This document shows positions 1-14,303 of a stretch of DNA of 46,062 bases, one piece after another. Every line of letters starts with the position of its first letter. Within the stretch, counting starts at the first letter, position 1. Under the pieces are notes generated by a model that was given only the letters and a program-made list of their open reading frames with translations, had not been told where the DNA came from and made no database searches. Both the position numbers and the translations under genes were made by a program. The DNA lies in the IMG/VR virus record IMGVR_UViG_3300025034_000006. One strand, written 5' to 3'. This stretch comes from an uncultured virus (IMG/VR IMGVR_UViG_3300025034_000006). Its lineage: Duplodnaviria; Heunggongvirae; Uroviricota; Caudoviricetes.

Positions 1-97
1 CTAAGTTGTTAACCATCAAAGTGGAAAAACTACTTGACCGAATCACTTGTGCCGCCTAGAAACGAATCACCGCAATCAAGCGGTTGGAGACTTGACC

Positions 98-520
98 ATG
101 CCTAAGTGGCAATACAGTGGCGACCTTGATCTGCGAGAGGGCGGATTCTTCTGGCTGGACAACGGCGATGAAGACTGGGTGGCAGCCGTAAGCGTGACCC
201 CTTGCAGCAGCGCAAGCGGGCCTGACAATCTGTTCTATATCGAGTCGGGCTCGATCTACTTTGCCCGCGATAAGTATGCTGACTATCTGTCAGTGATCGG
301 CATGGAACCGGAAGACGCGACTCGCGAAGACGTGATCTACGCCGCGCACGCCTATGCTGGAATCGAGCGGGACCACGAAACGGTCGTCCGAATTGGTAAG
401 GACGAAAGAGCGTCGGACCCTTGGCGGTGGAACGATTCGGGGTGGAACCCGGAACCCGATGTAGTGCTGCGCGGTAATGCGAGCCTGCAACGTTGGGTTG
501 AACGCGAGTATCTGTCATGA
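98..520 (+). CDS. Hypothetical acidic early protein A (140 aa)
   Basis: GGAGA RBS before ATG 98, downstream of promoter repeat. Confidence 0.8.
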   Translation: MPKWQYSGDLDLREGGFFWLDNGDEDWVAAVSVTPCSSASGPDNLFYIESGSIYFARDKYADYLSVIGMEPEDATREDVIYAAHAYAGIERDHETVVRIGKDERASDPWRWNDSGWNPEPDVVLRGNASLQRWVEREYLS

Positions 521-765
521 ACGCCGATGCAATCGAAGCGGAAGCCGCCGCAATCGCCCAAGCCGTTGCCGAGCGTAAGGCCCGGCCCTATCAGGCCGAT
601 GACAAGGCCCTAGTGGCGGCCTACCTTGCCGCCTCTGGTGTCGCGGGCTCACGCTCTTGGGAGATAACCCCGGAAGCGTTGGACTTGCCCTACCCTGTGT
701 GGGCGGCCATCCGGGCGGCCTACTTCGAAGCCGCGTGCAAGTGGAAGCGGGAGTCCGGCGCATAG
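517..765 (+). CDS. Hypothetical early protein (82 aa)
   Basis: ATGA overlap with upstream gene, followed by hairpin. Confidence 0.75.
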   Translation: MNADAIEAEAAAIAQAVAERKARPYQADDKALVAAYLAASGVAGSRSWEITPEALDLPYPVWAAIRAAYFEAACKWKRESGA

Positions 766-887
766 CCGGGCTCTTTCCCGGTAACCATCCGTTAACCTTA
801 ACAAGTCGTTACCACTAAGTGGAAAAAGTGCTTGACCGAATCGCTTGCGTCACTTAGAAACGAATCAGTTGAAACGGAGACAGACCA

Positions 888-1391
888 ATGCCTGAATTTC
901 AAATGGATAAAGAGGGAACCGTCAATGGGATGGTTTTCGCCGATCTCTCCATGATCTTTCAGGGTTACGTGGAAGCGATGCTTTTCACGGAAAACTCGCC
1001 CGGCAATAGCATGGTCGATTGGCTGGATGATGAAGTGCAGGCAGGCTTGCGGGAAGGCACCATTGACGGCTGCATTCCGGAAGATGCGGGCTGGGGTGAT
1101 ATTCACCCCGAATCGGCTGAGCGGATGCAACTCGATTGCCTTAACTTCGAAGTGCAAGCCCGCGATCTACTGGCGCAAGCCTATGAGCGCGACTATGACG
1201 CGGCGCAAGCGGGCCGGGATTTCTGGTTCACTCGCAACGGTCACGGCGTCGGCTTTTGGGACCGCAAGGAACTGGAAGCGGACGGGCTGGGGGATGCTCT
1301 CACCACCATCGCCGAGTCGTTCGGGCAAGTGTATGTCGATTTCATCGCAGACCCTGAAAGCCCGACCGGTTACGGTTACGTCCACGTCTGA
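888..1391 (+). CDS. Acidic phage hypothetical protein B (motif GRDFWFTRNGHGVGFWDR)
   Basis: RBS, promoter and terminator; motif resembles a recurrent phage hypothetical family (recalled). Confidence 0.85.
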   Translation: MPEFQMDKEGTVNGMVFADLSMIFQGYVEAMLFTENSPGNSMVDWLDDEVQAGLREGTIDGCIPEDAGWGDIHPESAERMQLDCLNFEVQARDLLAQAYERDYDAAQAGRDFWFTRNGHGVGFWDRKELEADGLGDALTTIAESFGQVYVDFIADPESPTGYGYVHV

Positions 1392-1546
1392 GAGGGGAGG
1401 GGCCTTGCGCCCCTCTCTTTTTGTCCGGTAACCTATCGTTAAGGTTAACGTGCCGGCCGATCTTCTTAACCATCAAAGTGGAAAAAGTGCTTGACCGAAT
1501 CACTTGGGTCACCTAGAAACGAATCACTTGAAACGGAGACAAGACC

Positions 1547-2245
1547 ATGAAACTTTTCCCTGATGCCGCCGCCCTCGAATCATCCGGCTATCTTTTCCGG
1601 ATCACTGACAACGGCGGCGAAACCTTTGACAGAATCACCGTCACGTTTTGCGATGGCGACGCGCTCGTTTGCACGCTCGGGACCATTTGCGCCCACGTTG
1701 AACGGGTTGACGTTCAAGTTGACGCAGAAGCCGTCGAATCCGGCGAGGCGCGGGACTTGCGCTGGATTGATCTGGACCCCGGCCTGCAATCGCGCATCCT
1801 TGCCGATCTGAATAACGGCTTTGCGGATTATATCGAAGCCGCGCCCGCAGCCGCGACTCGGGACGAAGCCCGCGACTGGGAAGGGCTATGGGATCACTAC
1901 AGTGATAAACGTTCGCCGATTTATAAGTTGGGGGATTATTATCGCATCCGCGATGATGAGCGCGACAATGAAAACGACGATGACGATGACGCCTTTGAGA
2001 CGCCAGCATTCGCTACGTTCCGGGACGCCTTATTCTACATGTTGCCAACCGACTATGACTTGAGCGGCCCGGAATATCACACCACGGTCGATCTCTGGGA
2101 TACCGAAGGGGGACCGGCTGAACCTTGGGAAAAGGAACAGGATTGCGGTCAATGCGAAGGCACCGGCACAATCGAAGGCGGACCGGGCGGTGATGGGGAG
2201 GATGAGGAATGCCCCGTCTGCGATGGGAAGGGCAAGCAGGGATAA
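1547..2245 (+). CDS. Very acidic protein C with C-terminal DnaJ-type zinc finger
   Basis: CGQCEGTG...CPVCDGKG (CxxCxGxG twice); RBS; terminator. Confidence 0.85.
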   Translation: MKLFPDAAALESSGYLFRITDNGGETFDRITVTFCDGDALVCTLGTICAHVERVDVQVDAEAVESGEARDLRWIDLDPGLQSRILADLNNGFADYIEAAPAAATRDEARDWEGLWDHYSDKRSPIYKLGDYYRIRDDERDNENDDDDDAFETPAFATFRDALFYMLPTDYDLSGPEYHTTVDLWDTEGGPAEPWEKEQDCGQCEGTGTIEGGPGGDGEDEECPVCDGKGKQG

Positions 2246-2404
2246 ACTAGGCGGGCTCCGGCCCGCCTCTTTTCCCGGTAACCCGGCGTTAACCTTAACA
2301 AATCGGACTAAGTTGTTAACCATCAAAGTGGAAAAACTACTTGACCGAATCACTTGTGCCGCCTAGAAACGAATCACCGCAATCAAGCGGTTGGAGACTT
2401 GACC

Positions 2405-2827
2405 ATGCCTAAGTGGCAATACAGTGGCGACCTTGATCTGCGAGAGGGCGGATTCTTCTGGCTGGACAACGGCGATGAAGACTGGGTGGCAGCCGTAAGC
2501 GTGACCCCTTGCAGCAGCGCAAGCGGGCCTGACAATCTGTTCTATATCGAGTCGGGCTCGATCTACTTTGCCCGCGATAAGTATGCTGACTATCTGTCAG
2601 TGATCGGCATGGAACCGGAAGACGCGACTCGCGAAGACGTGATCTACGCCGCGCACGCCTATGCTGGAATCGAGCGGGACCACGAAACGGTCGTCCGAAT
2701 TGGTAAGGACGAAAGAGCGTCGGACCCTTGGCGGTGGAACGATTCGGGGTGGAACCCGGAACCCGATGTAGTGCTGCGCGGTAATGCGAGCCTGCAACGT
2801 TGGGTTGAACGCGAGTATCTGTCATGA
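2405..2827 (+). CDS. Second identical copy of protein A
   Basis: Identical to 98-520. Confidence 0.8.
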   Translation: MPKWQYSGDLDLREGGFFWLDNGDEDWVAAVSVTPCSSASGPDNLFYIESGSIYFARDKYADYLSVIGMEPEDATREDVIYAAHAYAGIERDHETVVRIGKDERASDPWRWNDSGWNPEPDVVLRGNASLQRWVEREYLS

Positions 2828-3072
2828 ACGCCGATGCAATCGAAGCGGAAGCCGCCGCAATCGCCCAAGCCGTTGCCGAGCGTAAGGCCCGGCCCTATCA
2901 GGCCGATGACAAGGCCCTAGTGGCGGCCTACCTTGCCGCCTCTGGTGTCGCGGGCTCACGCTCTTGGGAGATAACCCCGGAAGCGTTGGACTTGCCCTAC
3001 CCTGTGTGGGCGGCCATCCGGGCGGCCTACTTCGAAGCCGCGTGCAAGTGGAAGCGGGAGTCCGGCGCATAG
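2824..3072 (+). CDS. Second identical copy of 82-aa protein
   Basis: Identical to 517-765. Confidence 0.75.
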   Translation: MNADAIEAEAAAIAQAVAERKARPYQADDKALVAAYLAASGVAGSRSWEITPEALDLPYPVWAAIRAAYFEAACKWKRESGA

Positions 3073-3194
3073 CCGGGCTCTTTCCCGGTAACCATCCGTT
3101 AACCTTAACAAGTCGTTACCACTAAGTGGAAAAAGTGCTTGACCGAATCGCTTGCGTCACTTAGAAACGAATCAGTTGAAACGGAGACAGACCA

Positions 3195-3698
3195 ATGCCT
3201 GAATTTCAAATGGATAAAGAGGGAACCGTCAATGGGATGGTTTTCGCCGATCTCTCCATGATCTTTCAGGGTTACGTGGAAGCGATGCTTTTCACGGAAA
3301 ACTCGCCCGGCAATAGCATGGTCGATTGGCTGGATGATGAAGTGCAGGCAGGCTTGCGGGAAGGCACCATTGACGGCTGCATTCCGGAAGATGCGGGCTG
3401 GGGTGATATTCACCCCGAATCGGCTGAGCGGATGCAACTCGATTGCCTTAACTTCGAAGTGCAAGCCCGCGATCTACTGGCGCAAGCCTATGAGCGCGAC
3501 TATGACGCGGCGCAAGCGGGCCGGGATTTCTGGTTCACTCGCAACGGTCACGGCGTCGGCTTTTGGGACCGCAAGGAACTGGAAGCGGACGGGCTGGGGG
3601 ATGCTCTCACCACCATCGCCGAGTCGTTCGGGCAAGTGTATGTCGATTTCATCGCAGACCCTGAAAGCCCGACCGGTTACGGTTACGTCCACGTCTGA
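3195..3698 (+). CDS. Second identical copy of protein B
   Basis: Identical to 888-1391. Confidence 0.85.
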   Translation: MPEFQMDKEGTVNGMVFADLSMIFQGYVEAMLFTENSPGNSMVDWLDDEVQAGLREGTIDGCIPEDAGWGDIHPESAERMQLDCLNFEVQARDLLAQAYERDYDAAQAGRDFWFTRNGHGVGFWDRKELEADGLGDALTTIAESFGQVYVDFIADPESPTGYGYVHV

Positions 3699-3852
3699 GA
3701 GGGGAGGGGCCTTGCGCCCCTCTCTTTTTGTCCGGTAACCTATCGTTAAGGTTAACGTGCCGGCCGATCTTCTTAACCATCAAAGTGGAAAAAGTGCTTG
3801 ACCGAATCACTTGGGTCACCTAGAAACGAATCAGTTGAAACGGAGACAGACC

Positions 3853-4092
3853 ATGCAAACAGCTATTGAACGCCTCAAGGAAGCCGCCAAGGACTCATTC
3901 ATGAAGCCGCAATCCTACATGGGTGCGGACATTCAGGAAGCGATTATGGAAGCCGGGCTCGATCTGGAAGACGACAAGATTTATGCACGCCTCTCGGCTC
4001 CGGGCTATCTCGATTGCACTGATTGGAGCGGTCCCTTCGACACCACGGAAGAGGCCGCACAAGCCTTGCTGGACCTCTACTTCGAAGATTGA
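3853..4092 (+). CDS. Acidic hypothetical protein D (79 aa; YARLSAPGYLDCTDWSGPF)
   Basis: GGAGACAGACC-ATG; terminator after stop. Confidence 0.85.
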   Translation: MQTAIERLKEAAKDSFMKPQSYMGADIQEAIMEAGLDLEDDKIYARLSAPGYLDCTDWSGPFDTTEEAAQALLDLYFED

Positions 4093-4251
4093 GAGTAGGG
4101 GCTTCGGCCCCTCTCTTTTTGCCCGGTAACCAGCCGTTAACCTTAACAGCGTGGTAACTAAGTGGAAAAACTTCTGGACGAATTGGCTTGCGAATCACCT
4201 ACGACTCGCCTATCAAGAGTTCAGCGCAATTCCGCGCTTGGAGACGACCAA

Positions 4252-4701
4252 ATGTCATCACCTTTCCTACCTTCGGTGCAAGAGCAACTACAAGCTCGCC
4301 GCGACGAATCGGACGACGGCTTCGCCTGCGTTCATATCGATACCTGTCTTTCATCCTTTCTGAATGACCACCACAATCGCGATGGCGAATTGCTGCTGGG
4401 CGCAATCGTCTTCGGCGATACTTCCATCGGTGAAGTCAAGAACGAACTGCTGAGCGAGTTCGACTCGGTGGCTTACGATCTGGCTGGTGAGCGTGCTGGC
4501 TATGACCACGACAAGGCTCGGAAAGCGATCCTGCGTGCGTTTGTGGACGTTCATCCCATGGAACTGGACCGGAAAGCTTTCGATCCTTCGCTGGATTTCC
4601 GCGACGAAGAGGACGACGGCTTCGGCTGCGAGGAATACTGTCAAGCGTGGTTCCTCATTACGTGGAACGTTCCGGAAGAGGAGGACGAGACATCGGATTG
4701 A
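4252..4701 (+). CDS. Acidic hypothetical protein (149 aa)
   Basis: GGAGA RBS before ATG 4252. Confidence 0.8.
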   Translation: MSSPFLPSVQEQLQARRDESDDGFACVHIDTCLSSFLNDHHNRDGELLLGAIVFGDTSIGEVKNELLSEFDSVAYDLAGERAGYDHDKARKAILRAFVDVHPMELDRKAFDPSLDFRDEEDDGFGCEEYCQAWFLITWNVPEEEDETSD

Positions 4702-4790
4702 TCGACGCACTCGCCCGCCTAGGTGTGGGCGTCCTCTTCCTTATCCTTGCAACTGGGCTGGCCGCGTGCCAGCCCCTTTTCTTTTGGTAA
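4698..4790 (+). CDS. Putative micro-lipoprotein MIDALARLGVGVLFLILATGLAACQPLFFW
   Basis: TTG overlapping upstream TGA; hydrophobic signal and lipobox LAAC; paralogous to 6543-6656. Confidence 0.55.
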   Translation: MIDALARLGVGVLFLILATGLAACQPLFFW

Positions 4791-4892
4791 CCATTCGTTA
4801 AGGTTAACAACAAGTGGAGTTCGGTGGAAAAAGTTCTTGACCAAATCGCTTGCACCGCCTAGAAACGAATCAGTTGAAACGGAGACAGACCA

Positions 4893-5165
4893 ATGATCAA
4901 AGCAGCAGCAGATTTCAGCCACATCCGCCCGGACGAAGTAGCTGAGTGTTGGGATGGTGTTGACGCCGTTCCCGGCCTTTACAGCGCCCTTTGGGGTTGT
5001 GTGAACGATTACAAGGCCCCGTCGCCGGAAGTATCGGAAGAGCCCTGCCACGGTATGGATTCGGTCGCTGACTTCTGGGATCGGTTCTCGGATGATCACA
5101 AAGAGGCGCTTAACGCCCTCTGCGAACGGCACGCTGAGTTCTGGACCGGCCACGAGGAGTATTGA
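4893..5165 (+). CDS. Acidic hypothetical protein (90 aa)
   Basis: Promoter repeat and RBS. Confidence 0.8.
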   Translation: MIKAAADFSHIRPDEVAECWDGVDAVPGLYSALWGCVNDYKAPSPEVSEEPCHGMDSVADFWDRFSDDHKEALNALCERHAEFWTGHEEY

Positions 5166-5167
5166 AC

Positions 5168-5413
5168 ATGAAGCTATTTTTCGTTGCTCACTTCAACGGC
5201 GAAAACTACGACTTGTTCGTGGTTGCCAACACGGTGGCGGAAGTGACTCAAGTCTGGCGAGACCATTACGAAATGCCGGACGAAACGCCCGAAATGATCT
5301 TCAAGGTAGCTGGCGCGAGCCCGGTCGGATCACGGGAAGAGCCCCATGCCTTCGAATGGCACGGGGTCAATCTCCCACGGGTTGGCGGCTCTCGACCGGC
5401 CAACCCGCGCTGA
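5168..5413 (+). CDS. Hypothetical protein (81 aa)
   Basis: GAGGAG RBS within upstream gene end; terminator follows. Confidence 0.75.
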   Translation: MKLFFVAHFNGENYDLFVVANTVAEVTQVWRDHYEMPDETPEMIFKVAGASPVGSREEPHAFEWHGVNLPRVGGSRPANPR

Positions 5414-5569
5414 GGGGAGGGGCTTTGGCCCCTCTCTTTTTGTCTGTAAAAATTCGTTAAGGTTAACAGCCCGATAACCACTGGAAAAATAAATGGAGAA
5501 AGTGCTTGCGTGAATCGAATCACCGGCCTATTACCGAATCACCGGCACGGAGCCGGAAGGAGAAAGACC

Positions 5570-6016
5570 ATGCAAGACGCCTCACTTTTCAAGCGCCGCG
5601 AAACGACCTTCAACGGCGGCGAATCGACCACTGGGGTTTACATCCCCAAGCAGACCGTCACGATCGGGCGGTGTGTTGATGAAAACGAAGACATCTGGAC
5701 CGTCACAGACGTGAACGGCAAGACCCACCGGGTTGATGGATGCGAGTTGCACCCGCACCCGGAATCCGCGCTGACCAATGTCGAGTTCATGAATCTGGTC
5801 ATGACGTGGTGCAAGACCCCGTTGATGCACGCCTTCATCTTTCAGGCGCTGGATCAATACGCCAAGGCTGTCGTCAAGGCAGACGTGGCGACGCTCGAAA
5901 CCCCGTTCATCGCTGGGGCGGCGTGGCAGGAAACGGCCCGTGAATATATGGGCTTCGCTGTCGCCCGTGAATACGTGGAGAAAGAGCGCCACAAGGAATT
6001 GACTCCGGCCGATTGA
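5570..6016 (+). CDS. Hypothetical protein (148 aa)
   Basis: AAGGAGA RBS before ATG 5570. Confidence 0.8.
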   Translation: MQDASLFKRRETTFNGGESTTGVYIPKQTVTIGRCVDENEDIWTVTDVNGKTHRVDGCELHPHPESALTNVEFMNLVMTWCKTPLMHAFIFQALDQYAKAVVKADVATLETPFIAGAAWQETAREYMGFAVAREYVEKERHKELTPAD

Positions 6017-6186
6017 GCCTTCGGGCTCTCGGCAGAGGGGCAGGGTTTGGTCGCCCTGCCCCTCACCTTTTTCTGGTAGGGACCCGTTAACCTTAACAAA
6101 TAGGGGTGGGTTGTTAATCGTGGAAAAAGTGCTTGACCGAATCAGTGGATAATGGCACCAACGAATCACCACAAAGGAGACAGACC

Positions 6187-6543
6187 ATGCGAATCACTTA
6201 CGAAATTGTGACCCCGGAAAGCGCCGAACAAGGCGACGCCGAAGAACGGGGATTCGTCCTTCCGGCTCGTTTCTTCCATATGAAGGTATCAATCGAACAG
6301 GTCGATGAACTGGATGACTCAGACTTGGAGTGGAGCTTGCGGGACGCTGAACAATACCTAGGCCGTAATGGCATGGAGGATTCCGGTCGCTGGTTTTCCA
6401 CAATTGACCCGGACCGCGATTATCAAACAGGTGCTGAAACCTATGAATCGCTGCACCCGTCGGACAACATCACACCGGCAAGCTACGAACGCCTTGCGCG
6501 TATCTTTTGCTGGGATCGCGACCCTCGACAGTTGCGAAGCTGA
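6187..6543 (+). CDS. Acidic hypothetical protein (118 aa; YEIVTPESAEQGDAEERGF)
   Basis: AAGGAGA RBS before ATG 6187. Confidence 0.85.
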   Translation: MRITYEIVTPESAEQGDAEERGFVLPARFFHMKVSIEQVDELDDSDLEWSLRDAEQYLGRNGMEDSGRWFSTIDPDRDYQTGAETYESLHPSDNITPASYERLARIFCWDRDPRQLRS

Positions 6544-6656
6544 TGGGCTGCCTTGACGCCGTGGCCCGGCTGCTGCTGGGTGTGTTCTTACTGATCATCG
6601 CCGCCGGGGTTGCATCATGCACCCCGGCATTTTTCTTTCTGGTAACGGTTCGTTAA
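6543..6656 (+). CDS. Putative micro-lipoprotein MGCLDAVARLLLGVFLLIIAAGVASCTPAFFFLVTVR
   Basis: TGATG coupling; hydrophobic signal and lipobox-like VASC; paralogous to 4698-4790. Confidence 0.55.
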   Translation: MGCLDAVARLLLGVFLLIIAAGVASCTPAFFFLVTVR

Positions 6657-6764
6657 CCTTAACAGAAGTGTTTCACTTGTTAACCAACTTTGAAGTGGAA
6701 AAAGTGCTTGACCGAAACAGCGAATCACCCTAGACCGGGATCACCAACAACGGAGACAAACCAA

Positions 6765-7163
6765 ATGAGCGAACACGCAATCAGCAATGCACGGGGCTGG
6801 CTCTCGACAATCGTCGGGGCGATGGCCGCGCTGGAAGCCCTGAACGACGGAGCCGAATCGGCTGAGTTCGACGGGGAGACCTTCACCGACCCGGACGACG
6901 TGCAGAACCGGATTCAGGAAATGCCGCTTTCCGTGGAAGTGCGCGACGGATGGCGGGCACCGGGCGGCGAATCGGAGCCGGAAGAGTTCGCGATTCTGCT
7001 CTCGACCGGCGGACCGGCCTTGCGGGTATATGGTGACATCGGCGGCGAACCTTTCTTGCAGTGGCAGGACTGGGGCACGCCGTGGACCACCTACCATGAC
7101 ACCACCGAACAGGAAGACGAGGCCCTGCAAGCCTTTGTCGGAATGTTCTATCTCGGCGAATAA
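6765..7163 (+). CDS. Very acidic hypothetical protein (132 aa; ILLSTGGPALR...WQDWGTPW)
   Basis: RBS, promoter, terminator. Confidence 0.85.
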   Translation: MSEHAISNARGWLSTIVGAMAALEALNDGAESAEFDGETFTDPDDVQNRIQEMPLSVEVRDGWRAPGGESEPEEFAILLSTGGPALRVYGDIGGEPFLQWQDWGTPWTTYHDTTEQEDEALQAFVGMFYLGE

Positions 7164-7332
7164 GGAAAGGCGGGGCAACCCGCCTTTTTCTTTGGGTGTA
7201 AACATTCGTTAAGGTTAACGGAATCGGTCTATCGTGTTAACCATTCTTCAAAGTGGAAAAAGTGCTTGACCGAATCGCTGGAAAATGCGAATCAGGGTTT
7301 ACCGGAAGAGACCGGAAAACAGGAGACAGACC

Positions 7333-7638
7333 ATGAAGACACTTTTTGAAATCCCGACCCGTGGCGATGACATGACCATGCCGGGCGGCATCGCGCTGCG
7401 CTACAACGAAAACCGCGAAGAGTTTGTGGTCCACAACTACAACACCGACCGGGAGACAGGCACCGAACGCAATTACTTTGGTGGCGGCTACTACTGCTCG
7501 GGCACACCGGCGGAACGTCTGAGCGGGGCCATGGCAGACCTCAGCAAGCGGGTTGCACGTCAGAGCAATTACGATCTGGGCGGCTCCATTGATGTGGAAG
7601 CTTTGACCGGACTCCCTGCCCGGCTCTACGCCATCTAA
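7333..7638 (+). CDS. Hypothetical protein (101 aa)
   Basis: AGGAGACAGACC-ATG. Confidence 0.8.
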   Translation: MKTLFEIPTRGDDMTMPGGIALRYNENREEFVVHNYNTDRETGTERNYFGGGYYCSGTPAERLSGAMADLSKRVARQSNYDLGGSIDVEALTGLPARLYAI

Positions 7639-7641
7639 TAC

Positions 7642-7727
7642 CGGGACCCGGCACCCTGAGAACAGGGGCCGGGTTTCCAAACACCGGCGGGACCCGGCCC
7701 ACTGAGAACAAGGGCCGGGTTTCCAAA
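7642..7727 (+). repeat. Two tandem 40-nt hairpin repeats (7642-7681, 7688-7727); related copies at 12681-12742
   Basis: CGGGACCCGGC..CTGAGAACA(G/A)GGGCCGGGTTTCCAAA. Confidence 0.9.
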
Positions 7728-7855
7728 TTGGTAACCAATCGTTAAGGTTAACAAATTGATGAAATGAGTTAACTATTAAAGTGGAAAAAGTGCTTGACCG
7801 AATCGCTGGGAACGGGCAAACGAATCAGGCGCACTCAAGCGCAGGAGACAGACCA

Positions 7856-8143
7856 ATGCCCAAACTTTACAATGCGGACATTAGCATCACCGCGACCGCC
7901 TATGTGATCGCTGAGAACGAAGACGACGCACGGGAAAAGATTAGCGCCCTTCAAGGGGACTACATCGAATTTTCCGACCGCCGCCAGCAAGTGGCAGACG
8001 ACCTGTTCGTGACCGGCGAAACCTATGGCCCTGATATGCCGAAACTGTCGCTGAGCCCTGCTATGACCATCAACCACAGCGCGACTCGCCCCTATGTCTG
8101 TCTGGTGCAGGAACTGACCGGCGAAGAAGAGGATGTAGGATGA
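7856..8143 (+). CDS. Acidic hypothetical protein (95 aa)
   Basis: AGGAGA RBS before ATG 7856. Confidence 0.8.
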   Translation: MPKLYNADISITATAYVIAENEDDAREKISALQGDYIEFSDRRQQVADDLFVTGETYGPDMPKLSLSPAMTINHSATRPYVCLVQELTGEEEDVG

Positions 8144-8415
8144 TGCACGAAGCCAATCAATCCCGGATCGACTGGGCAAAGAACGCCCTCGATACCTTCA
8201 CCATCGAAACCTATGGCGGACGGCCTTACTCGACGCTTGAAGCGCAATGCGCCGACTGCGAAGAAGGTGAGGGTGACGACTACACGGCCATCCAAGACCT
8301 TATCGGTGATTTGCTCCATGTGGCCCACGAAAGAGGCTGGAACACAGCCGAACTAATCCGGCGGGCGGAAGCCAACTTCGTCTATGAAGCTGCACCGGAC
8401 TATCAAGGCGACTAA
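8140..8415 (+). CDS. Acidic hypothetical protein (91 aa; IQDLIGDLLHVA)
   Basis: ATGA overlap; terminator follows. Confidence 0.8.
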   Translation: MMHEANQSRIDWAKNALDTFTIETYGGRPYSTLEAQCADCEEGEGDDYTAIQDLIGDLLHVAHERGWNTAELIRRAEANFVYEAAPDYQGD

Positions 8416-8750
8416 GGGAGAGGGGCTTCGGCCCCTCTTTGCTTTTTGGTCGTTTTGGATCACCGCCGCTTTGGATCGACGCGACTTTGGATCGCCCCGG
8501 TTTTGGGTTTGGATCATTTCGATTTTCATGATCGCCGCCATTTTGCAGGAGCCCGGACCGACCGACCGAACCAGCCGACCGAGCCCCACGCTCCCCACCA
8601 GCAGATGGTTAACGAAACTGACCAATCTGTTAAGGTTAACGCCGGCGGCCGAATCCGTTAAGGAATATGGTTAACAGATTGGCTGATTTTGTTAACCATC
8701 AAAGTGGAAATAGTGCTTGACCGAATCAGCGAATCGGTCCATACCCGAAT

Positions 8751-8837
8751 GGTAAATGGTTGGACAGCCAGATCAAGGAACTGGATTGCGATTGGGGCGA
8801 CCCTGTTTCACCTGAATGCGAATCGCATCTCTATTGA
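8751..8837 (+). pseudogene. 5'-truncated cassette gene remnant (GKWLDSQIKELDCDWGDPVSPECESHLY*) or 25-aa peptide from TTG 8760
   Basis: Full promoter upstream and terminator downstream, but no RBS or in-frame ATG. Confidence 0.45.
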
Positions 8838-9004
8838 GGGAGCGGGCTTCGGCCCGCCTCTTGGCTGGTAACGGTTTGTTAAGGTTAACGGTCGGCCGGG
8901 ATTTGTTAACCATCAAAGTGAAAAGTAAGTGGAAAAACTGCTTGACCGAATCGGCTTAGACTGGCACTAACGAATCACCGCAATCAAGCGGACGGAGAAA
9001 GACT

Positions 9005-9091
9005 ATGAGCCGACACCAGAAACGCCGCCTTGCCGCCAAGCGTGCGCGCATCGCCATTCTTTCCTCGTGGATCGCAAAGGGCCGCCGCTAA
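9005..9091 (+). CDS. Arg-rich 28-aa peptide MSRHQKRRLAAKRARIAILSSWIAKGRR
   Basis: GGAGA RBS; TAATG coupling to next gene. Confidence 0.7.
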   Translation: MSRHQKRRLAAKRARIAILSSWIAKGRR

Positions 9092-9357
9092 TGGCTGGCT
9101 TCTGGGATCGCGTGGACACCCTCGAAATGGTGGAACTCTACGCCGAGGACAACGGCCAGATTGCCAGCGAAGAGGAGCTTTCCAAGCGCTTTGACGAAGA
9201 AGTGCTTCCCGATGTGATCGCACACTACGGCGAAAACGATTCGGTTGCTATCAATGAAGAATTTAGCAACTGGTCGGACATGCTGTGTAAGGACGGCGAA
9301 ATTCACCCGGAACAATACAATTCGTATTGCTACGTTGGAAAGCTGGCAGACGACTAA
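9091..9357 (+). CDS. Very acidic hypothetical protein (88 aa; NWSDMLCKDGEI)
   Basis: Coupled start; hairpin after stop. Confidence 0.8.
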   Translation: MAGFWDRVDTLEMVELYAEDNGQIASEEELSKRFDEEVLPDVIAHYGENDSVAINEEFSNWSDMLCKDGEIHPEQYNSYCYVGKLADD

Positions 9358-9468
9358 GGCGAGGGGCTTAGGTCCCTCACCAAACTTTTTTTTTGTAATT
9401 AGTGGAAAAAGTGCTTGACCGAATCGGTTGGTTCGCCTAGAAACGAATCAACAGCAACGGAGGCAGTC

Positions 9469-9573
9469 ATGCAGATCAACACCTACCACGTTTACATCAA
9501 CAACACCTTTTCCGGGATCATCTCGGCGGTGTCTTACCGGCAAGCGCGCCAGCGCGCTAAGGCCAAGGTTTGA
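9469..9573 (+). CDS. 34-aa peptide MQINTYHVYINNTFSGIISAVSYRQARQRAKAKV
   Basis: Own promoter, GGAGG RBS and terminator; similar to N-terminus of 14031-14303. Confidence 0.75.
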   Translation: MQINTYHVYINNTFSGIISAVSYRQARQRAKAKV

Positions 9574-9735
9574 GGGGAGGGGCTTCGGCCCCTCTTTCTT
9601 TTTGCCCGGTGAAATTTGTTAACCTTAACGAATATGGTTAACAAATTGACGTTTGGGGTTAACTATCAAAGTGGAAAAAGTGCTTGACCGAATCGGTGAC
9701 TCGTGCGAAAACGAATCATCAATCGGAGACAGATC

Positions 9736-9867
9736 ATGCAAAACATCCGCAAGAATCCCATTGCCGCCTCGCTCGCCAGCGCTCACCTCGCCCCTCGCAA
9801 GGTTCGCGCTCGTAAAGGCAAGGGCTCTTTCCGCCGCAACCCCAAGCATCGGGGAGTGGCGGCATGA
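9736..9867 (+). CDS. arfA: ArfA-like (alternative ribosome-rescue factor A) peptide, 43 aa
   Basis: MQNIRKNPIAASLASAHLAPRKVRARKGKGSFRRNPKHRGVAA matches the ArfA pattern N.I.A.L....F..R....KKGKGSY.R..KH; RBS GGAGA; below ORF-track cutoff. Confidence 0.7.
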   Translation: MQNIRKNPIAASLASAHLAPRKVRARKGKGSFRRNPKHRGVAA

Positions 9868-10046
9868 GCCGCGCTCGCAACACCCTCGACTCCCGCTATA
9901 GCGTGCGCCTCGAATGGTGCGGACGTGCGACGCAGCAATGGGTTGCCCGCTTCTGTGGTGATTGGCTCGGATGCGACTCGACCCGCTCGGGCGCTGAGGA
10001 AATCGCCCGTCTGTATGAGCGCGACCGCTGGAGCATGGCAGCATGA
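9864..10046 (+). CDS. Hypothetical protein (60 aa)
   Basis: ATGA overlaps at both ends, GGAG RBS. Confidence 0.75.
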   Translation: MSRARNTLDSRYSVRLEWCGRATQQWVARFCGDWLGCDSTRSGAEEIARLYERDRWSMAA

Positions 10047-10387
10047 GCGACCGCATCCGCCCCGTGACTTTCGACTCGGCCCAGATCGAGCCCTTTGCTG
10101 CTCGCATCATCGGCATAGCCGCTTCGCAATTCTGTCGCCTCAAAGAGCGCGAGAAAGAGACCGGAGAGAAGTCGGACCCCTTCGACATGGAAGATGCTCT
10201 TATGCATCTCTGGTGGGCTCTCAAGGGGCTTGATCACATTGCAATAGCGTTACGCGGCGGCAGGGACTGCGACGACGTGTCAGGCGTTCATTTTTCCATG
10301 GTGATGAATGCGGAACACAGCAGGATTCGCCGCCTCATCATGGAAGAACTTGGAGTCGATCCCGGATCGCATCCGCGCTGGAAATGA
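10043..10387 (+). CDS. Hypothetical protein (114 aa)
   Basis: ATGA overlap; terminator follows. Confidence 0.75.
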   Translation: MSDRIRPVTFDSAQIEPFAARIIGIAASQFCRLKEREKETGEKSDPFDMEDALMHLWWALKGLDHIAIALRGGRDCDDVSGVHFSMVMNAEHSRIRRLIMEELGVDPGSHPRWK

Positions 10388-10594
10388 GGGGCTTCGGCCC
10401 CTCTCTTTTTGCCCGGTAACCCCACGTTAAGGTTAACCGATCGGGCGAAGTTGTTAACCATCAAAGTGAAATTGAAGTGGAAAAAGTTCTTGCACGAATC
10501 AGCGAATCGCCCTAGACCCGAATCACCGGGCGGCACCTACTGACTGGCAGAGCAGCAGCAAGGCTCGCCCGGTAACTCACACAGGAGACAGGCT

Positions 10595-10756
10595 ATGTTC
10601 GAAGTCAAGACCACCCTGCGGACCTACAAGGTCGAAGCCAATCACATCAACGCCGCTTTCATCGCCGCAAACGTGCTGGCAGTGGAAGGCGAAGAAATCC
10701 TTTCCGTGGCCTATGCTGGGCCCGTCACGTTCATCATCGTGGAGATCGCGGCATGA
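10595..10756 (+). CDS. Hypothetical protein (53 aa, MFEVKTTLRTYKVEA...VEIAA)
   Basis: AGGAGA RBS; ATGA coupling to next gene. Confidence 0.7.
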   Translation: MFEVKTTLRTYKVEANHINAAFIAANVLAVEGEEILSVAYAGPVTFIIVEIAA

Positions 10757-10971
10757 TCAGCAAGAAAGATGCCATCGCCAAGGCAATCGCGGCTGGAGCC
10801 TCGGAGGAGGAAATTGATCGCCAAGCCGCAAACTACGTCCGCCAAGTCGGCACCGTGCCTTTCAACAACATGATTCGGGCTCTCAACATCGGCCCTTGGC
10901 ACAACACCGTTGACGACTGGACTCGGCTGGCAGCAGCCCTGACCGCGAGGGGATTGGCGCGAAAGCGCTAA
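10753..10971 (+). CDS. Hypothetical protein (72 aa)
   Basis: GGAGA RBS, coupled start. Confidence 0.75.
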   Translation: MISKKDAIAKAIAAGASEEEIDRQAANYVRQVGTVPFNNMIRALNIGPWHNTVDDWTRLAAALTARGLARKR

Positions 10972-11091
10972 TTCCTTAACGGAATTGATGAATTTGTTAA
11001 GGTTAACGCGAATTAAGAATAAAGTGGAAAAAGTGCTTGACCGAATCAGTTAACCATCCTAGAAACGAATCAACAGCAACGGAGACACACA

Positions 11092-11304
11092 ATGAAGATC
11101 AAGATCAAGACCACCGCTCGCTACACCGCAAAGCGCAAAGCCGCCATCATCGCCGATGTGGACAACGGCACCACCACCCTCGAAGACGTTTGCAGCCTGC
11201 ACAACATCACAAGCGAAGAGTTTGCTGGCTGGCGTAAGTCGCTGGATCGCTCGGGACAGCAGGGGCTTCGGATCACTCGCCTGCAACACTACCGGGCAGC
11301 ATAA
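11092..11304 (+). CDS. sciP: SciP/DUF1153-family CtrA-inhibitor homologue (70 aa)
   Basis: RYTAKRKAAII...G...LEDVC....TSEEFAGWRKSLDRSGQQGLRITRLQHYR aligns without gaps to the SciP core RWVIRRKAEVV...G...L.EAC..Y.LT.EEF.SWQ..IDRHG..GLR.TRIQ.YR (recalled). Confidence 0.88.
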   Translation: MKIKIKTTARYTAKRKAAIIADVDNGTTTLEDVCSLHNITSEEFAGWRKSLDRSGQQGLRITRLQHYRAA

Positions 11305-11454
11305 GGGGAGGGGCTTCGGCCCCTTTTCTTTTGGCCTTAACCCAGTGTTAAGGTTAACAGATCAGCCGAATTAGTTAACCAATTAGCTGGAAAAAGTGCT
11401 TGACCGAATCAGCGAATCACCTTAGACCCGAATCACAAACAACGGAGACAGACC

Positions 11455-11697
11455 ATGCGTTTTCTTTCTGCAACCCTTATGGCCCTCGGCCTTTTAGCTG
11501 GTTATGGTGCTTTCTACATGACAGCGAACATTGACCTAACCCCGCTCGCCCCTGAGGCCCGGACCGTCACCCAGATGCTCTTTAACGCCCTTGCTATGTG
11601 CGGGCTTTGCCTGCCCGCCTTGTCGATGCTAGCGCTGCACGACGACGCAAACTTGCGCCGCCAGTATCCCCACCGCTATCGCAAGAATCGCCGCTAA
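11455..11697 (+). CDS. Small membrane protein (80 aa, two hydrophobic segments)
   Basis: Promoter repeat and RBS; hydrophobic stretches with basic tail. Confidence 0.75.
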   Translation: MRFLSATLMALGLLAGYGAFYMTANIDLTPLAPEARTVTQMLFNALAMCGLCLPALSMLALHDDANLRRQYPHRYRKNRR

Positions 11698-11861
11698 TGG
11701 AAACGCTGGCAGAATATCGCCACAAGCGCGACCGGGCAATCGTTCAACGCCGCATGGGCGAAGAGCGCCGCCGCCACGTCAATCAATGCGTGGCTGACAT
11801 CATCGCACAAGGTAAGATGGAAGAGCGCCGCCAGACCATCCGCCGGGAGGAAGATCAATGA
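11697..11861 (+). CDS. Arg/Glu-rich helical peptide (54 aa, METLAEYRHKRD...)
   Basis: TAATG and ATGA couplings. Confidence 0.65.
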   Translation: METLAEYRHKRDRAIVQRRMGEERRRHVNQCVADIIAQGKMEERRQTIRREEDQ

Positions 11862-12058
11862 CAGACCGCCGATTCGTTATCGTGGAAAACGCCGGATATG
11901 AAGGCGAAAAAGACATCACCCACTTTCTCACCTTGCGGGAGGCATTCGCCTATCAGCGCGGCCATTATGAGCCGGACGAGATCGAAGAATTGCACGTCGA
12001 TATTCGCCAAGACTGGACGGACGAAAACGGCGATTTTCATCAGGAATATGTCTATTAG
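11858..12058 (+). CDS. Acidic hypothetical protein (66 aa)
   Basis: GGAGG RBS, coupled start. Confidence 0.75.
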   Translation: MTDRRFVIVENAGYEGEKDITHFLTLREAFAYQRGHYEPDEIEELHVDIRQDWTDENGDFHQEYVY

Positions 12059-12125
12059 GTGGAAAAAGTGCTTGACCGAATCGATGGACTATGCGAAAAC
12101 GAATCATCGAAACGGAGACAAGCAA

Positions 12126-12320
12126 ATGACCACCATCCTGATCCTCGCAATCGCCTTCCTGATCACCGCCACCGTGGCAATCATCAAGGCCCGCGCCGAA
12201 CTCGCCGCTCACGCCGCCGAACAGGCAAGCAAGCATATCCCCAACCCAACCGAATACACCGGCCCGCGCTTCACCGCACATGGCCGGGAAATCCAACAGA
12301 CCGGACGCCGGATCATCTGA
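12126..12320 (+). CDS. N-terminally membrane-anchored protein (64 aa)
   Basis: GGAGA RBS; MTTILILAIAFLITATVAII; terminator. Confidence 0.75.
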   Translation: MTTILILAIAFLITATVAIIKARAELAAHAAEQASKHIPNPTEYTGPRFTAHGREIQQTGRRII

Positions 12321-12476
12321 GAAAGGGGCGGGAGAAATCCCGCCCTTTTCTTTGTCTGGTAACCGGGTGTTAAGGTTAACAAAACGGTTAAATTCGTTAA
12401 CCATCAAAGTGGAAAAAATGCTTGACCGAATCGGCTGGTATGTTTAGACCCGAATCACTGGAAACGGAGACAGACC

Positions 12477-12674
12477 ATGAGCAATTCCACCGAACAAGCA
12501 ATGGCCGCCGACCTCGACCTTTGCGACATGATCCTTGCATTCGGAACGCCTGCCGCCAAGCGCAAGGCCCGCGCCCACCGCAAGGCTTGTTTCGCAGAAA
12601 TCGCCCGGATGAACGCCGAGTCTGGGACTGACAAGCTGAGCGATGATGAATTACTCGCCGAATTGATGGCCTGA
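12477..12674 (+). CDS. Hypothetical protein (65 aa)
   Basis: Promoter repeat and RBS. Confidence 0.8.
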   Translation: MSNSTEQAMAADLDLCDMILAFGTPAAKRKARAHRKACFAEIARMNAESGTDKLSDDELLAELMA

Positions 12675-12862
12675 CAGGAACCGGCCCCTGACAACAGGGG
12701 CCGGGACCCTAATTCACTGAGAAAAGGGGCCGGGCTCCAAAATCGTAAATTCAGGTTAACCTTAACCGATCGGCCGAAATCGTTAACCATCAAAGTGGAA
12801 AAAGTGCTTGACCGAATCGGCTGGCGCGTTTAGACCCGAATCACTGGAAACGGAGCCAGACC

Positions 12863-13138
12863 ATGGAAAGATTCGAACTGACAGGCTCGGGCATCAGCGA
12901 CGGGCAGAATCCGGAAAAACTGCTTGCCGCCGCGAAAAAGTGCGGCCTTCACAATCCCCGACTCGCCTATCACTTCGGCTGGTCGAATCAGCCGAAAACG
13001 ATTCGTTTCAGCGCTGAAAGCTGGGAAGCTGCCGATAAGGTCGCCGATCTGGTGCGAACCGAATTTTACCCGGAAAATGCCGAGGGCCGTTTGTGCCCGA
13101 TGATTCGGGCCTATCCGGTGAAAGCCCCGGAAGCCTGA
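12863..13138 (+). CDS. Hypothetical protein (91 aa)
   Basis: Promoter repeat, RBS, terminator. Confidence 0.8.
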   Translation: MERFELTGSGISDGQNPEKLLAAAKKCGLHNPRLAYHFGWSNQPKTIRFSAESWEAADKVADLVRTEFYPENAEGRLCPMIRAYPVKAPEA

Positions 13139-13311
13139 TCCCGGAAAAGCCCGATTCGCCGAATCGGGCTTTTTCTTTGGCGGTAATCTCTGGTTAACCT
13201 TAATAAAACGGCGAAATTCGTTAACCCTAAAAATCGGGATTTTCTGGAAAAAGTGCTTGACCGAATCGGCCTTTTCTGGAAAAACCGAATCACCGCAAAC
13301 GGAGAAATGAC

Positions 13312-13467
13312 ATGATCACCATGGAAGCGATTATCGGGGGCCTTATTTCGGGGTTCGCTGTGCGCCTCTATGGTGCAGGACTGGCGCTCTATGTGGGCCT
13401 GTGTGCGAGCGACCTTATCAGCAGCACCCTTGCCAGCGCCACGGCTACCCTAGACACCCTACCCTAA
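13312..13467 (+). CDS. Hydrophobic 51-aa peptide (MITMEAIIGGLISGFAVRLYGAGLALYVGLC...)
   Basis: GGAGA RBS after last promoter repeat. Confidence 0.65.
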   Translation: MITMEAIIGGLISGFAVRLYGAGLALYVGLCASDLISSTLASATATLDTLP

Positions 13468-13536
13468 CCTACTCTGTCCTGCCCGGCCTAGGCTGTGTGC
13501 GCGGCTCTCGGCTGCTATGGATCAAGGTCATTTTAG

Positions 13537-13662
13537 GTATGCGTGCGTGTGCGCGTGCGTGCGTGTGCGCCTGTGCGTGCGCCTGTGCGGGCGCGTGCGC
13601 CTGCGGGTGTGCGCGCCTGCGTGTGTGTGTGCATGTGTGCGCGTGCCTGCCTAGGCGCGCAC
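13537..13662. repeat. Alternating purine-pyrimidine (GT/GC) low-complexity tract
   Basis: Uninterrupted RY alternation at 13537-13570 and 13618-13646. Confidence 0.9.
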
Positions 13663-13665
13663 GAG

Positions 13666-14024
13666 GTGGAAAAACAAACTCACAAACTAATTCATTTTGT
13701 TATTGATTTGGTAACGAATCCCTGCGATAAAGGGACATCGAAAGCGAACGGAGACAAGACCATGTTCAAGATCATTGACACCGCAAACAACAGCGAATGC
13801 CTTGGTAGCTATGAAACCCGCGCTGGGGCAGACTACGGGCTCGGCATGGTAGCTTGTGGACGTGGTAACGACTCGGGCTTGCGTATCGTCAACCAAATGA
13901 CTCATTGCGTAGAAGTGCCCGCCACGTTCTAAGTAGTGGAAAAACAAACTAACAAAATAATTCATTTTGTTATTGATTTGGTAACGAATCCCTGCGATAA
14001 AGGGACATCGAAAGCGAACGGAGA
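13666..14024 (+). promoter_or_regulatory. Two near-identical 89-bp variant promoters (13666-13754, 13936-14024): TTGATT-N17-GATAAA with AT-rich UP-like element and GAATC in spacer
   Basis: -35 at 13703 and 13973; each followed by GGAGA RBS and ATG. Confidence 0.8.
13762..13932 (+). CDS. Hypothetical protein (56 aa, MFKIIDTANNSECLGSYETRAGA...)
   Basis: GGAGACAAGACC-ATG. Confidence 0.75.
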   Translation: MFKIIDTANNSECLGSYETRAGADYGLGMVACGRGNDSGLRIVNQMTHCVEVPATF

Positions 14025-14030
14025 AACAAC

Positions 14031-14303
14031 ATGACCAACCTGATCCCCACCTTCCGCGTTTACAAGAACAAGGTCCTTGTCGGCACCGTGTCGGCAACCA
14101 CCGAACAGCAGGCCCATGCCCGCGCATACGGCAAGTATGGCCGCTGCGAAGTCATGAAGGCTGACATGGAGCGCCGCCTTAGCACTAGCGGCCGTGTGGA
14201 GCGCGCTGACAGCAGCTTCACCCATGGCCGCAGCCCCTACCCCACCCCCGGCTTTGAGGCACGCCGTGCCGCTGAAATCGCCCGCTGGAAAGCGGGCGAA
14301 TAA
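14031..14303 (+). CDS. Basic hypothetical protein (90 aa)
   Basis: GGAGA RBS; last gene of early array. Confidence 0.8.
   Translation: MTNLIPTFRVYKNKVLVGTVSATTEQQAHARAYGKYGRCEVMKADMERRLSTSGRVERADSSFTHGRSPYPTPGFEARRAAEIARWKAGE

Follow-up and report, generated by a model that had tools for sequence, protein, structure and literature searches.

Promoters resembling host rRNA promoters, with GANTC sites at fixed positions, in the small-gene array of a phiCbK/Lacusarx-like phage: candidates for reading by host GcrA

The word GANTC is the target of the cell-cycle methylase CcrM, and the known role of GcrA has so far been the regulation of host cell-cycle genes. The present work considers 24 promoters of a single design, all of them carrying GANTC, in a 46,062-nucleotide stretch of DNA from an uncultured virus (IMG/VR record IMGVR_UViG_3300025034_000006; the whole of this stretch is hereafter called the window), and the ways in which they may be read. 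The closest described regulatory system is the set of GcrA/CcrM promoters of Caulobacter (ctrA P1, PcsM, ftsZ, mipZ), which combine a sigma70 core with GANTC in a YGAKTCK/G context. The consensus for GcrA is given as TGATTCG or YGAKTCK, that is CGAATCA on the other strand, in the available part of Haakonsen 2015 (PMC4647560), and as YGAKTCG in those of Wu 2018 (PMC5887438) and Wu 2023 (PMC9976885), the form that an earlier, sequence-only reading of the window had rightly given. According to the same part of Wu 2023 (PMC9976885), the centre of a GcrA box lies at -20 ± 1, at -30 ± 2 or downstream, and the non-template strand of the cryo-electron microscopy (cryo-EM) scaffold carries GAATC at offset 13, 7 nt after TTGACA. 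For the phiCbK-like phages, Lacusarx included, the accessible text of Mascolo 2022 (PMC9437464) reports CtrA boxes concentrated in the terminal repeats. Among the papers listed for GANTC, bacteriophage, GcrA and promoters, none concerns phage promoters by title or abstract. A term search of the text of the papers on Erythrobacter phage L02 and Citromicrobium phage RXM found no mention of promoters, methylation, GcrA or CtrA, save one promoter match in the L02 reference list and carbamidomethylation in the RXM methods, and the available part of the Lacusarx paper gives just one predicted promoter per module.

The promoter copies were located by a script anchored on their upstream block, and offsets are given relative to the first T of the -35 hexamer (Table 1). 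Between positions 21 and 13292 lie 24 copies of the same design with sites at fixed positions, representing 22 distinct loci, since 1-1526 recurs at 2308-3833 as an exact 1526-nt direct duplicate that spans three promoter cassettes. An information profile resolves two conserved blocks, GTGGAAAAAGTGC-TTGACC-GAATC and A..AA.CGAATCA, separated by a variable spacer. The -35 hexamer is TTGACC in 21 of the 24 copies. A GANTC at its edge, starting 5-7 nt after the first T, is likewise present in 21, in every case as GAATC and in the context CGAATCA or CGAATCG throughout, except for one TGAATCG. A downstream site at offset 28-31, one base past the hexamer in the -10 position, is found in 21/24 (20 CGAATCA, one CGACTCG). 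The paired arrangement described in the sequence-only reading, with CGAATC(A/G) both abutting the -35 and just past the -10, is borne out in 19 copies, and the further spacer site that it had noticed in some copies occurs in eight; all 24 have at least one site, with one to three per promoter. The hexamers in the -10 position are TAGAAA (nine copies), TAGACC (five) and ten others, and the hexamer 17 nt past the -35 keeps an A in its second position (-11 A) in 23 of the 24. The array promoters have -35 and -10 elements of sigma70 type at normal spacing. A scan with an E. coli-type consensus called none of the 24 copies, the last -10 base not being T, which we ascribe to the limits of that consensus and do not count against the promoters; the ribosomal RNA (rRNA) promoters of hosts have the same trait.

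Table 1. Promoter copies and adjoining regions of the window (window positions; numbers after a motif are start positions unless a range is given)
Feature	Start	End	Strand	Elements
Promoter copy 1	21	69	+	A-rich upstream block; TTGACC 34; CGAATCA 39-45; TAGAAA 57-62; CGAATCA 63-69
Promoter copy 2	819	867	+	-35 at 832; GAATC 838, 862
Promoter copy 3	1478	1526	+	-35 at 1491; GAATC 1497, 1521
Promoter copy 4	2328	2376	+	exact duplicate of copy 1
Promoter copy 5	3126	3174	+	exact duplicate of copy 2
Promoter copy 6	3785	3833	+	-35 at 3798; GAATC 3804, 3828
Promoter copy 7	4162	4210	+	degenerate: TGGACG for -35, first site GAATT; CGAATCA at offset 17, CGACTCG at offset 28
Promoter copy 8	4824	4872	+	first site mutated to AAATC; downstream CGAATCA retained (4867)
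Promoter copy 9	5493	5541	+	-35 TTGCGT; GAATC 5512, 5517, 5536
Promoter copy 10	6120	6168	+	GAATC 6139, 6163; CACCAA at -10 position
Promoter copy 11	6695	6743	+	first site GAAAC and downstream GGATC (both lost); spacer CGAATCA 6722
Promoter copy 12	7253	7301	+	GAATC 7272, 7289 (offset 23, on -10 position)
Promoter copy 13	7781	7829	+	GAATC 7800, 7822 (offset 28)
Promoter copy 14	8704	8752	+	GAATC 8723, 8731; downstream site GAATG
Promoter copy 15	8929	8977	+	GAATC 8948, 8972
Promoter copy 16	9402	9450	+	GAATC 9421, 9445
Promoter copy 17	9671	9719	+	GAATC 9690; GACTC 9698 (spacer); GAATC 9713
Promoter copy 18	10477	10525	+	-35 TTGCAC; GAATC 10496, 10504, 10520
Promoter copy 19	11024	11072	+	GAATC 11043, 11067; drives SciP-like gene
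Promoter copy 20	11387	11435	+	GAATC 11406, 11414, 11430
Promoter copy 21	12059	12107	+	GAATC 12078, 12101 (offset 29)
Promoter copy 22	12409	12457	+	GAATC 12428, 12452
Promoter copy 23	12795	12843	+	GAATC 12814, 12838
Promoter copy 24	13244	13292	+	GAATC 13263, 13287
Second promoter class, first copy	13666	13740	+	TTGATT 13703; 17-nt spacer with CGAATCC from offset 13; GATAAA
Second promoter class, second copy	13936	14010	+	TTGATT 13973; identical spacer
PhoH, portal, head and tail genes	14401	46062		GANTC-depleted, 0.42 of expectation, 75 sites

The context preferred by GcrA, which the earlier reading had recognized in these sites, is present in 48 of the 50 that lie in promoter cores, as YGAKTCG on one strand, versus 47 of the 148 elsewhere in the window. 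The density comparison proposed at the same time gave 123 GANTC in 1-14400 (8.54/kb) and 75 in 14401-46062 (2.37/kb). Relative to a first-order Markov expectation, the word is over-represented 1.91-fold in the first part and falls to 0.42 in the second; among the 16 words of the form XYNY'X' it has the top ratio in the array and the bottom ratio in the structural part, and the window as a whole holds 198, compared with 247.7 ± 14.1 in shuffles. By sequence, 75 of the sites in 1-14400 are GAATC and 19 are GATTC. These figures bear on one alternative, by which the GANTC load of the array would be a sponge for CcrM or GcrA that disturbs the host cell cycle, or a means of restriction avoidance or a restriction decoy, with no role at promoters. 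The 123 sites of a terminal-repeat-type array would indeed accumulate in many copies after replication, but 50 of them stand at fixed promoter positions within only 888 nt of promoter cores, and the remaining array has about the expected density (5.4/kb), so that this explanation is regarded as very improbable.

The start site was placed at the conserved A after the second GAATC because this base, 7 nt past the -10, corresponds in alignment to the TCA of the rRNA promoters. With such a start, the -35-edge, spacer and downstream sites would be centred at -27, -19 and -3. Table S3 of Haakonsen 2015 (PMC4647560; part of the paper available) lists 140 rows for the Caulobacter regulon, of which 18 lie at -26 to -32, four of those at -27, among them ctrA, whose site has rank 2; another 30 fall at -18 to -22, and only six between -12 and 0, one of which is at -3. 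The -27 and -19 sites would therefore fit the Caulobacter GcrA position classes, if the start is placed correctly. The likeness extends to the strand, the phage promoter sites presenting GAATC on the non-template strand as in the PcsM-derived scaffold of the complex of GcrA with RNA polymerase (RNAP). The number of boxes differs, with two or three per phage promoter and one at most Caulobacter targets, as far as the available sources go. What further sets the window's promoters apart is that they belong to a phage, form about 24 near-identical copies in tandem cassettes and have the rare box at about -3.

The window was analysed alongside a near-identical 96.8-kb viral record (G001), which has 96% of the window's sampled words in common with it, and GenBank relatives. 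Its product at 17530-19296 is a portal protein of 588 amino acids (aa), whose identity is 90% with the portal of Erythrobacter phage XM05, 72% with that of L02, 68% with that of Sphingobium phage Lacusarx and 59% with that of RXM, falling to about 41-44% for roseophages and Caulobacter phiCbK-like phages, which points to a phiCbK/Lacusarx-like siphophage of an Erythrobacter-type host as the source. XM05 has the window's gene order: large terminase, a long series of small unnamed genes, PhoH, portal, head and tail. In the available parts of the respective papers, a 10.5-kb stretch of double read coverage directly 3' of the Lacusarx terminase gene is interpreted by the authors as the terminal repeat, the direct terminal repeat of RXM was determined to be its first 10,992 bp, and that of phiCbK begins within the terminase gene. 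The small-gene array of RXM was located inside its repeat. As these phages place the repeat there, positions 1 to ~14,000 of the window represent the terminal-repeat-type small-gene array of this group, between terminase and portal, and it is from this genome position that the array would be called early. A comparable arrangement is known from phage T5, whose pre-early promoters lie in the terminal repeat, the first DNA to enter, where they are strong, use the host polymerase and drive small takeover genes. The T5 promoters are not known to carry a methylation word, whereas the array of the window has GANTC and its timing would follow from position only.

The copies inside one phage are paralogues, and a test of selection on the sites must therefore come from other lineages. 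XM05 has 25 promoter copies of the window's design. In L02, all 25 copies have TTGAC-GAATC at offset 5, the GAATC overlapping the last base of TTGACG and thus lying one base nearer than in the window, and 21 of the 25 have a site at offset 29-31. Lacusarx has TTGAC-GAATC at offset 5 in 8/8 copies, and in six of them a second site (GACTC, GAATC or GAGTC) at offset 15-16, 10-11 nt further on. In RXM, CGAATCG, CGAATCA or CGACTCG is found at offset 14-15 in 11 of 12 copies, and a GACTC overlapping the -35, at offset 2, in six. The roseophage DSS3P8 has a few TTGAC-N8-CGAATC promoters only. Across the relatives the upstream blocks and spacers differ, and what persists is GA-TC with its preceding C and following purine. 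When the same segments were shuffled with matched composition, 5000 times per phage, the spacer sites exceeded the shuffle mean in all five phages: 8 versus 1.7 in the window (the observed number being reached by 1 of 5000 shuffles), 6 versus 1.75 in XM05 (32/5000), 8 versus 2.0 in L02 (3/5000), 6 versus 0.6 in Lacusarx (0/5000) and 11 versus 0.9 in RXM (0/5000). GANTC density in the arrays is 2.4 to 5.7 times that of the DNA next to them, with 7.6 versus 1.3 per kb in L02, 4.4 versus 1.9 in Lacusarx and 6.1 versus 1.5 in RXM, a comparison that covered 40 kb of L02, 40 kb of Lacusarx and 100 of the 104 kb of RXM. Since both the position and the middle base of the word shift between relatives while its flanking context stays, we conclude from these sequences that the methylation word GANTC is itself under selection.

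The design has a close counterpart in host DNA. Named Sphingomonadales genomes were reached by means of a short degenerate word that represents the beginning of GcrA (PhoH, used as bait for host genomes, gave no match), namely those of Erythrobacter oryzae, Erythrobacter sp. AP23, Qipengyuania intermedia, Parerythrobacter lutipelagi and Sphingomonas sp. Leaf33. TTGAC(N0-1)GAATC occurs 22 times in these five genomes, versus 6 for the reversed control, and 16 of the 22 are the exact 11-mer of the phage. Twelve host places were read, showing A/T-rich upstream sequence, TTGACC-GAATC-N12-TAGATG and no open reading frame (ORF) behind, in four genomes. Rfam places a 16S gene about 400 nt downstream in three such places; one more, of the same design, lies at a contig end, and in P. 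lutipelagi (locus L141) a signal recognition particle (SRP) RNA gene follows the promoter directly, for which reason TTGACC-GAATC is a mark of stable-RNA promoters and not of rRNA operon (rrn) promoters only. The 27-nt word TTGACCGAATC-N12-TAGA, which also fits the phage promoters, has 11 matches in 9 of the 61 genomes of an even sample of the family of E. oryzae and none for the control, and nine of the 11 lie 350-400 nt 5' of a 16S gene. A survey that started from the 16S genes covered 26 loci in 22 of 41 genomes, 24 of them, in 21 genomes, with 650 nt of upstream sequence; GANTC stands 0-2 nt past TTGAC in nine of the 24 upstream regions (9/21 genomes) and at offset 10 in one.

In an alignment (A1) of six phage promoters with five from hosts, 21 columns are invariant, among them AAAAA, TTGACCGAATC and TA-A. 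Phage and host 16S or SRP RNA promoters have in common an A-rich upstream block, TTGACC, GAATC, a variable stretch of 12 nt and a TAGA-type -10, and with the rRNA promoters the phage also shares TCACCG around the likely start. The two differ in the base after GAATC, a purine (A or G) in the phage and for the most part a pyrimidine (C or T) in the host; in the discriminator, which is GC-rich in the host (GCCCTC type) and occupied by CGAATC in the phage; and in their products, small proteins in the one case and stable RNAs in the other. The phage promoter, having the upstream A-tract, TTGACC, the 17-nt spacer and the TAGA-type -10 and lacking the GC-rich discriminator and the stable RNA product, is built like an rrn promoter without being one, and among Erythrobacter-type bacteria it closely resembles the rRNA promoter of one group. 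This comparison affects one argument of the sequence-only reading, which had listed the -10 hexamers as variable and weak and hence as those of activator-dependent promoters. The variable set is as it was listed, but the inference from weakness fails because the strongest promoters of the hosts, those of the 16S operons, use the same TTGACC-GAATC-N12-TAGA core and the -11 A is kept in nearly all copies; such a -10 is typical for the host and not weak. The GANTC at the -35 edge is likewise a host promoter element and not an invention of the phage, and this favours a reader from the host over a factor specific to the phage. The likeness shows where the design comes from, a point that is independent of the question of GcrA, and it raises the question whether rRNA transcription in these bacteria is itself sensitive to methylation.

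The same likeness supports the foremost of the alternatives, in which GAATC simply belongs to a host rRNA core promoter that was captured or imitated, and is read by RNAP or is neutral and maintained by gene conversion, with no role for methylation. The common TTGACCGAATC-N12-TAGA and A-rich block are as this explanation would have them, as is the near identity of the paralogous copies within a phage, and the host sites lie mostly outside the best GcrA context. It is less easily reconciled with the turnover of the position and middle base of GANTC between lineages while the flanks stay, with the excess of spacer sites over shuffles in all five phages, with a second site that has no counterpart in host promoters, and with the standing of GANTC as the most enriched word in the array and the most depleted outside it. 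Moreover, 14 of the 24 rRNA promoters surveyed in the family are without GANTC in the first half of the spacer. Such a passive origin of the sites is considered possible but unlikely.

The factors needed for reading by the host are encoded in the family of the probable hosts. GcrA (PF07750) was found above the Pfam cut-off in all 61 genomes of the family sample, and a PF01555 methylase, at about 220 bits, in all five named genomes. No GcrA was found in the records of G001, XM05, L02, Lacusarx or RXM (0/5), so that these phages would need the host factor for their first genes. The proposal of the sequence-only reading that GcrA acts on CcrM-methylated sites at these promoters has in its favour the sites themselves, their top-ranked context, the -27 and -19 positions, the host GcrA and PF01555 genes and the relatives; its argument from a weak -10 and the -3 position do not support it. 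Reading of the array promoters by the host's GcrA and CcrM is accordingly given about an even chance, and the promoters would probably tie the first genes of the phage to host GcrA.

Each cassette begins with a strong sigma70-type promoter that resembles the host 16S promoter: an A-rich block leads into TTGACC, GAATC follows at once, and a spacer of 17 nt separates the -35 from a TAGA-type -10 whose -11 base is A. According to the mechanism envisaged as most likely, host RNAP together with GcrA would read the methylated box at about -27, plus the optional box at about -19, and promoter binding and opening would thereby be boosted, as at Caulobacter ctrA P1 or PcsM. The phage would have added CGAATCA in place of the GC-rich discriminator of the rRNA promoter, either as a second box or as a discriminator that escapes growth-rate control. 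If so, some 24 phage promoters with the preferred box would be a clear case of a virus borrowing an epigenetic reader. A more far-reaching proposal is that the terminal-repeat promoters of Sphingomonadales phages are improved copies of host rRNA promoters, the -35-edge GANTC being written by CcrM and read by GcrA, the flanks optimized and the discriminator replaced by a second box, and that fully methylated incoming DNA fires at once while replicated, unmethylated progeny DNA falls silent, as a timer from early to late expression. This combination is rather improbable as a whole; were it true, rRNA synthesis in Erythrobacter-type bacteria would be coupled both to DNA methylation and to the cell cycle. 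XM05, L02, RXM and Lacusarx are available in culture with their hosts.

Two further alternatives compete for the same sites. A methylation switch could operate independently of GcrA, with N6-methyladenine (m6A) beside the -35 and in the discriminator altering the contacts of RNAP or of another host protein, by analogy with the Dam-sensitive promoters of IS10, P1 cre and Mu mom. It draws on the same evidence for selection on GANTC as reading by GcrA does, and it would accommodate the -3 site, where GcrA boxes are rare but a methyl group could affect DNA melting; on the other hand, 48 of the 50 sites have the flanks of GcrA preference and not GANTC alone, and -27 and -19 match GcrA position classes. 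This switch ranks behind the captured core promoter and is judged quite unlikely. Ranking after it, and slightly less likely again, is an injected or early-made phage protein that binds CGAATCR words, for example a repressor that shuts the array off. The -35-edge sites and those at -5 to -1 overlap the core promoter and are typical operator positions, the array encodes a helix-turn-helix (HTH) protein resembling SciP (11092-11304), and most genes of the array lack a known function, Pfam giving no match (E <= 0.01) for 29 of the 31 ORFs that were scanned there. Against such a protein, the -35-edge word also occurs in host rRNA and SRP RNA promoters, so that a host reader exists, and the SciP-like gene is found in only one of five other records. 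In addition, the register from site to site differs by 1 nt between lineages (24 versus 25 nt) and the middle base varies, so that a reader of GANTC fits better than a fixed operator.

Several observations weigh against reading by GcrA. The copies in each phage being paralogous, counts within one phage are not independent. The downstream site at about -3 holds a position found in one of the 140 Caulobacter GcrA promoters and lies within the melted region; in Lacusarx, GANTC is present at offset 30 in just two of eight copies, and ATCACCG is retained there in five. This element may be an initiation or leader element, since it is mostly not GANTC in Lacusarx, or else a discriminator escaping growth-rate control or a new box position. 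The host rRNA sites are mostly CGAATCC or CGAATCT, whose flanks are not those that GcrA prefers most, and the 14 of 24 rRNA promoters without the word mean that it is not required for rRNA promoter function in general. No PF01555 (CcrM-family) enzyme was found in G001, XM05, L02, Lacusarx or RXM. CcrM is short-lived in Caulobacter, and packaged DNA may be poorly methylated if the host enzyme is equally short-lived. The CtrA-box promoters of phiCbK, eight in number and described below, are without GANTC. Finally, a scan of Alphaproteobacteria phages, Lacusarx included, with a GcrA matrix gave no positional asymmetry according to the available part of Mascolo 2022 (PMC9437464), which reports none for SciP or DnaA motifs either.

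With regard to methylation by the phages themselves, all five encode a protein of about 250 aa with an NPPY motif that matches phrog_799, 'DNA methyltransferase' (E 2.7e-55); searches of Pfam, NCBIfam and PDB sequences gave no useful match to it. In G001, the gene for this protein (246 aa; L013 1078-1818, outside the window) adjoins a dCMP-deaminase-like gene.

The phiCbK-like promoters offer a second comparison, as they belong to the same supergroup and occupy the same place, among small genes 3' of the terminase in the terminal repeat. In the phiCbK repeat, a TAAC/TTAAC box followed by a CTAGGGT-like -10 was found in 8 of 14 upstream regions. In these promoters the CtrA box takes the -35 position, whereas the window has a normal -35 with GANTC and its CtrA-like words lie tens of bases upstream; a TTAA-N7-TTAA box overlapping the -35 is absent from the array promoters. 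The CtrA-box promoters lack GANTC, and a check of phiCbK for the window's promoter design found no copy of it. The CtrA-like word of the window, GTAA-N7-TTAA(C/G), occurs 16 times in the array, 5' of the promoter block and ranging over 781-13200, and nowhere else. It stands right after the preceding gene, in several cases after a called terminator hairpin (e.g., 781-803, 1428-1450, 4126-4148). It adjoins either GTTAAGGTTAAC, which has 12 occurrences in the array and one elsewhere, or the reverse complement GTTAACCTTAAC, which has eight in the array and none elsewhere, so that this adjoining word occurs in both orientations. The word TTAACCAT has 11 occurrences, mostly about 12 nt 5' of the promoter block. 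By their sequence, these words look like full and half CtrA boxes such as those of the phiCbK repeats.

A phage copy of a cell-cycle regulator lies inside the array. The gene behind promoter copy 19 (11092-11304, + strand) encodes the 70-aa SciP-like HTH protein, which matches DUF1153 (E 6.5e-20) and scores 67.7 bits, below the cut-off of 100, against the NCBIfam model 'CtrA inhibitor SciP'. Among the five other records the gene is present in XM05 only, and not in L02, Lacusarx, RXM or phiCbK, and the protein was for this reason rejected as a general reader of the sites.

The two promoters of the second class (13703-13731 and 13973-14001) have CGAATCCCTGC immediately 5' of the -10, and the PcsM-derived scaffold has the 11 letters CGAATCCCTGC in the equivalent place, a likeness that could be due to chance or to a shared optimum. 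At the end of the array, 14339-14390 holds seven GANTC in 52 nt, distributed between a 14-bp hairpin and a palindromic GATTC/GAATC run. Short hairpins of the ACCGCAATCAAGCGGT type start 1-7 nt from the inferred start at 69-84, 7829-7845 and 8977-8993 and may be stabilizers of the 5' ends of transcripts. The product of 9736-9867 (+ strand), of 43 aa, matches the alternative ribosome-rescue factor A, ArfA (PF03889, 30.8 bits, above the cut-off), which is also annotated in the array of RXM. In an aquifer metatranscriptome (X23), four short contigs are 100% identical to the window within array genes (6759-7041, 8993-9183, 12128-12325 and 14066-14247); this set was rejected as evidence of expression or start sites, as its contigs show neither starts nor strand and carry-over of DNA is possible.

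The word depth of contigs from the probable source run is 13.5-19.4 across the array and 9-10 beyond ~13.8 kb, a weak hint of a terminal repeat. A GT/GC-rich simple repeat of the GTGCGTGC type lies at 13534-13646, where contigs of the source run end and right after which the depth falls from about 15-19 to about 9-10; it may mark the right-hand end of the terminal repeat. The promoter cassettes are connected in other orders in contigs from the probable source run and from two wastewater runs, so that the array is either shuffled by recombination at its repeats or hard to assemble. The gene-poor stretch at 14400-14830 contains repeated words of the GGGGACCC type, which may be a packaging or replication signal, and similar GGGGACCCT repeats are found in the first 1 kb of the phiCbK terminal repeat.

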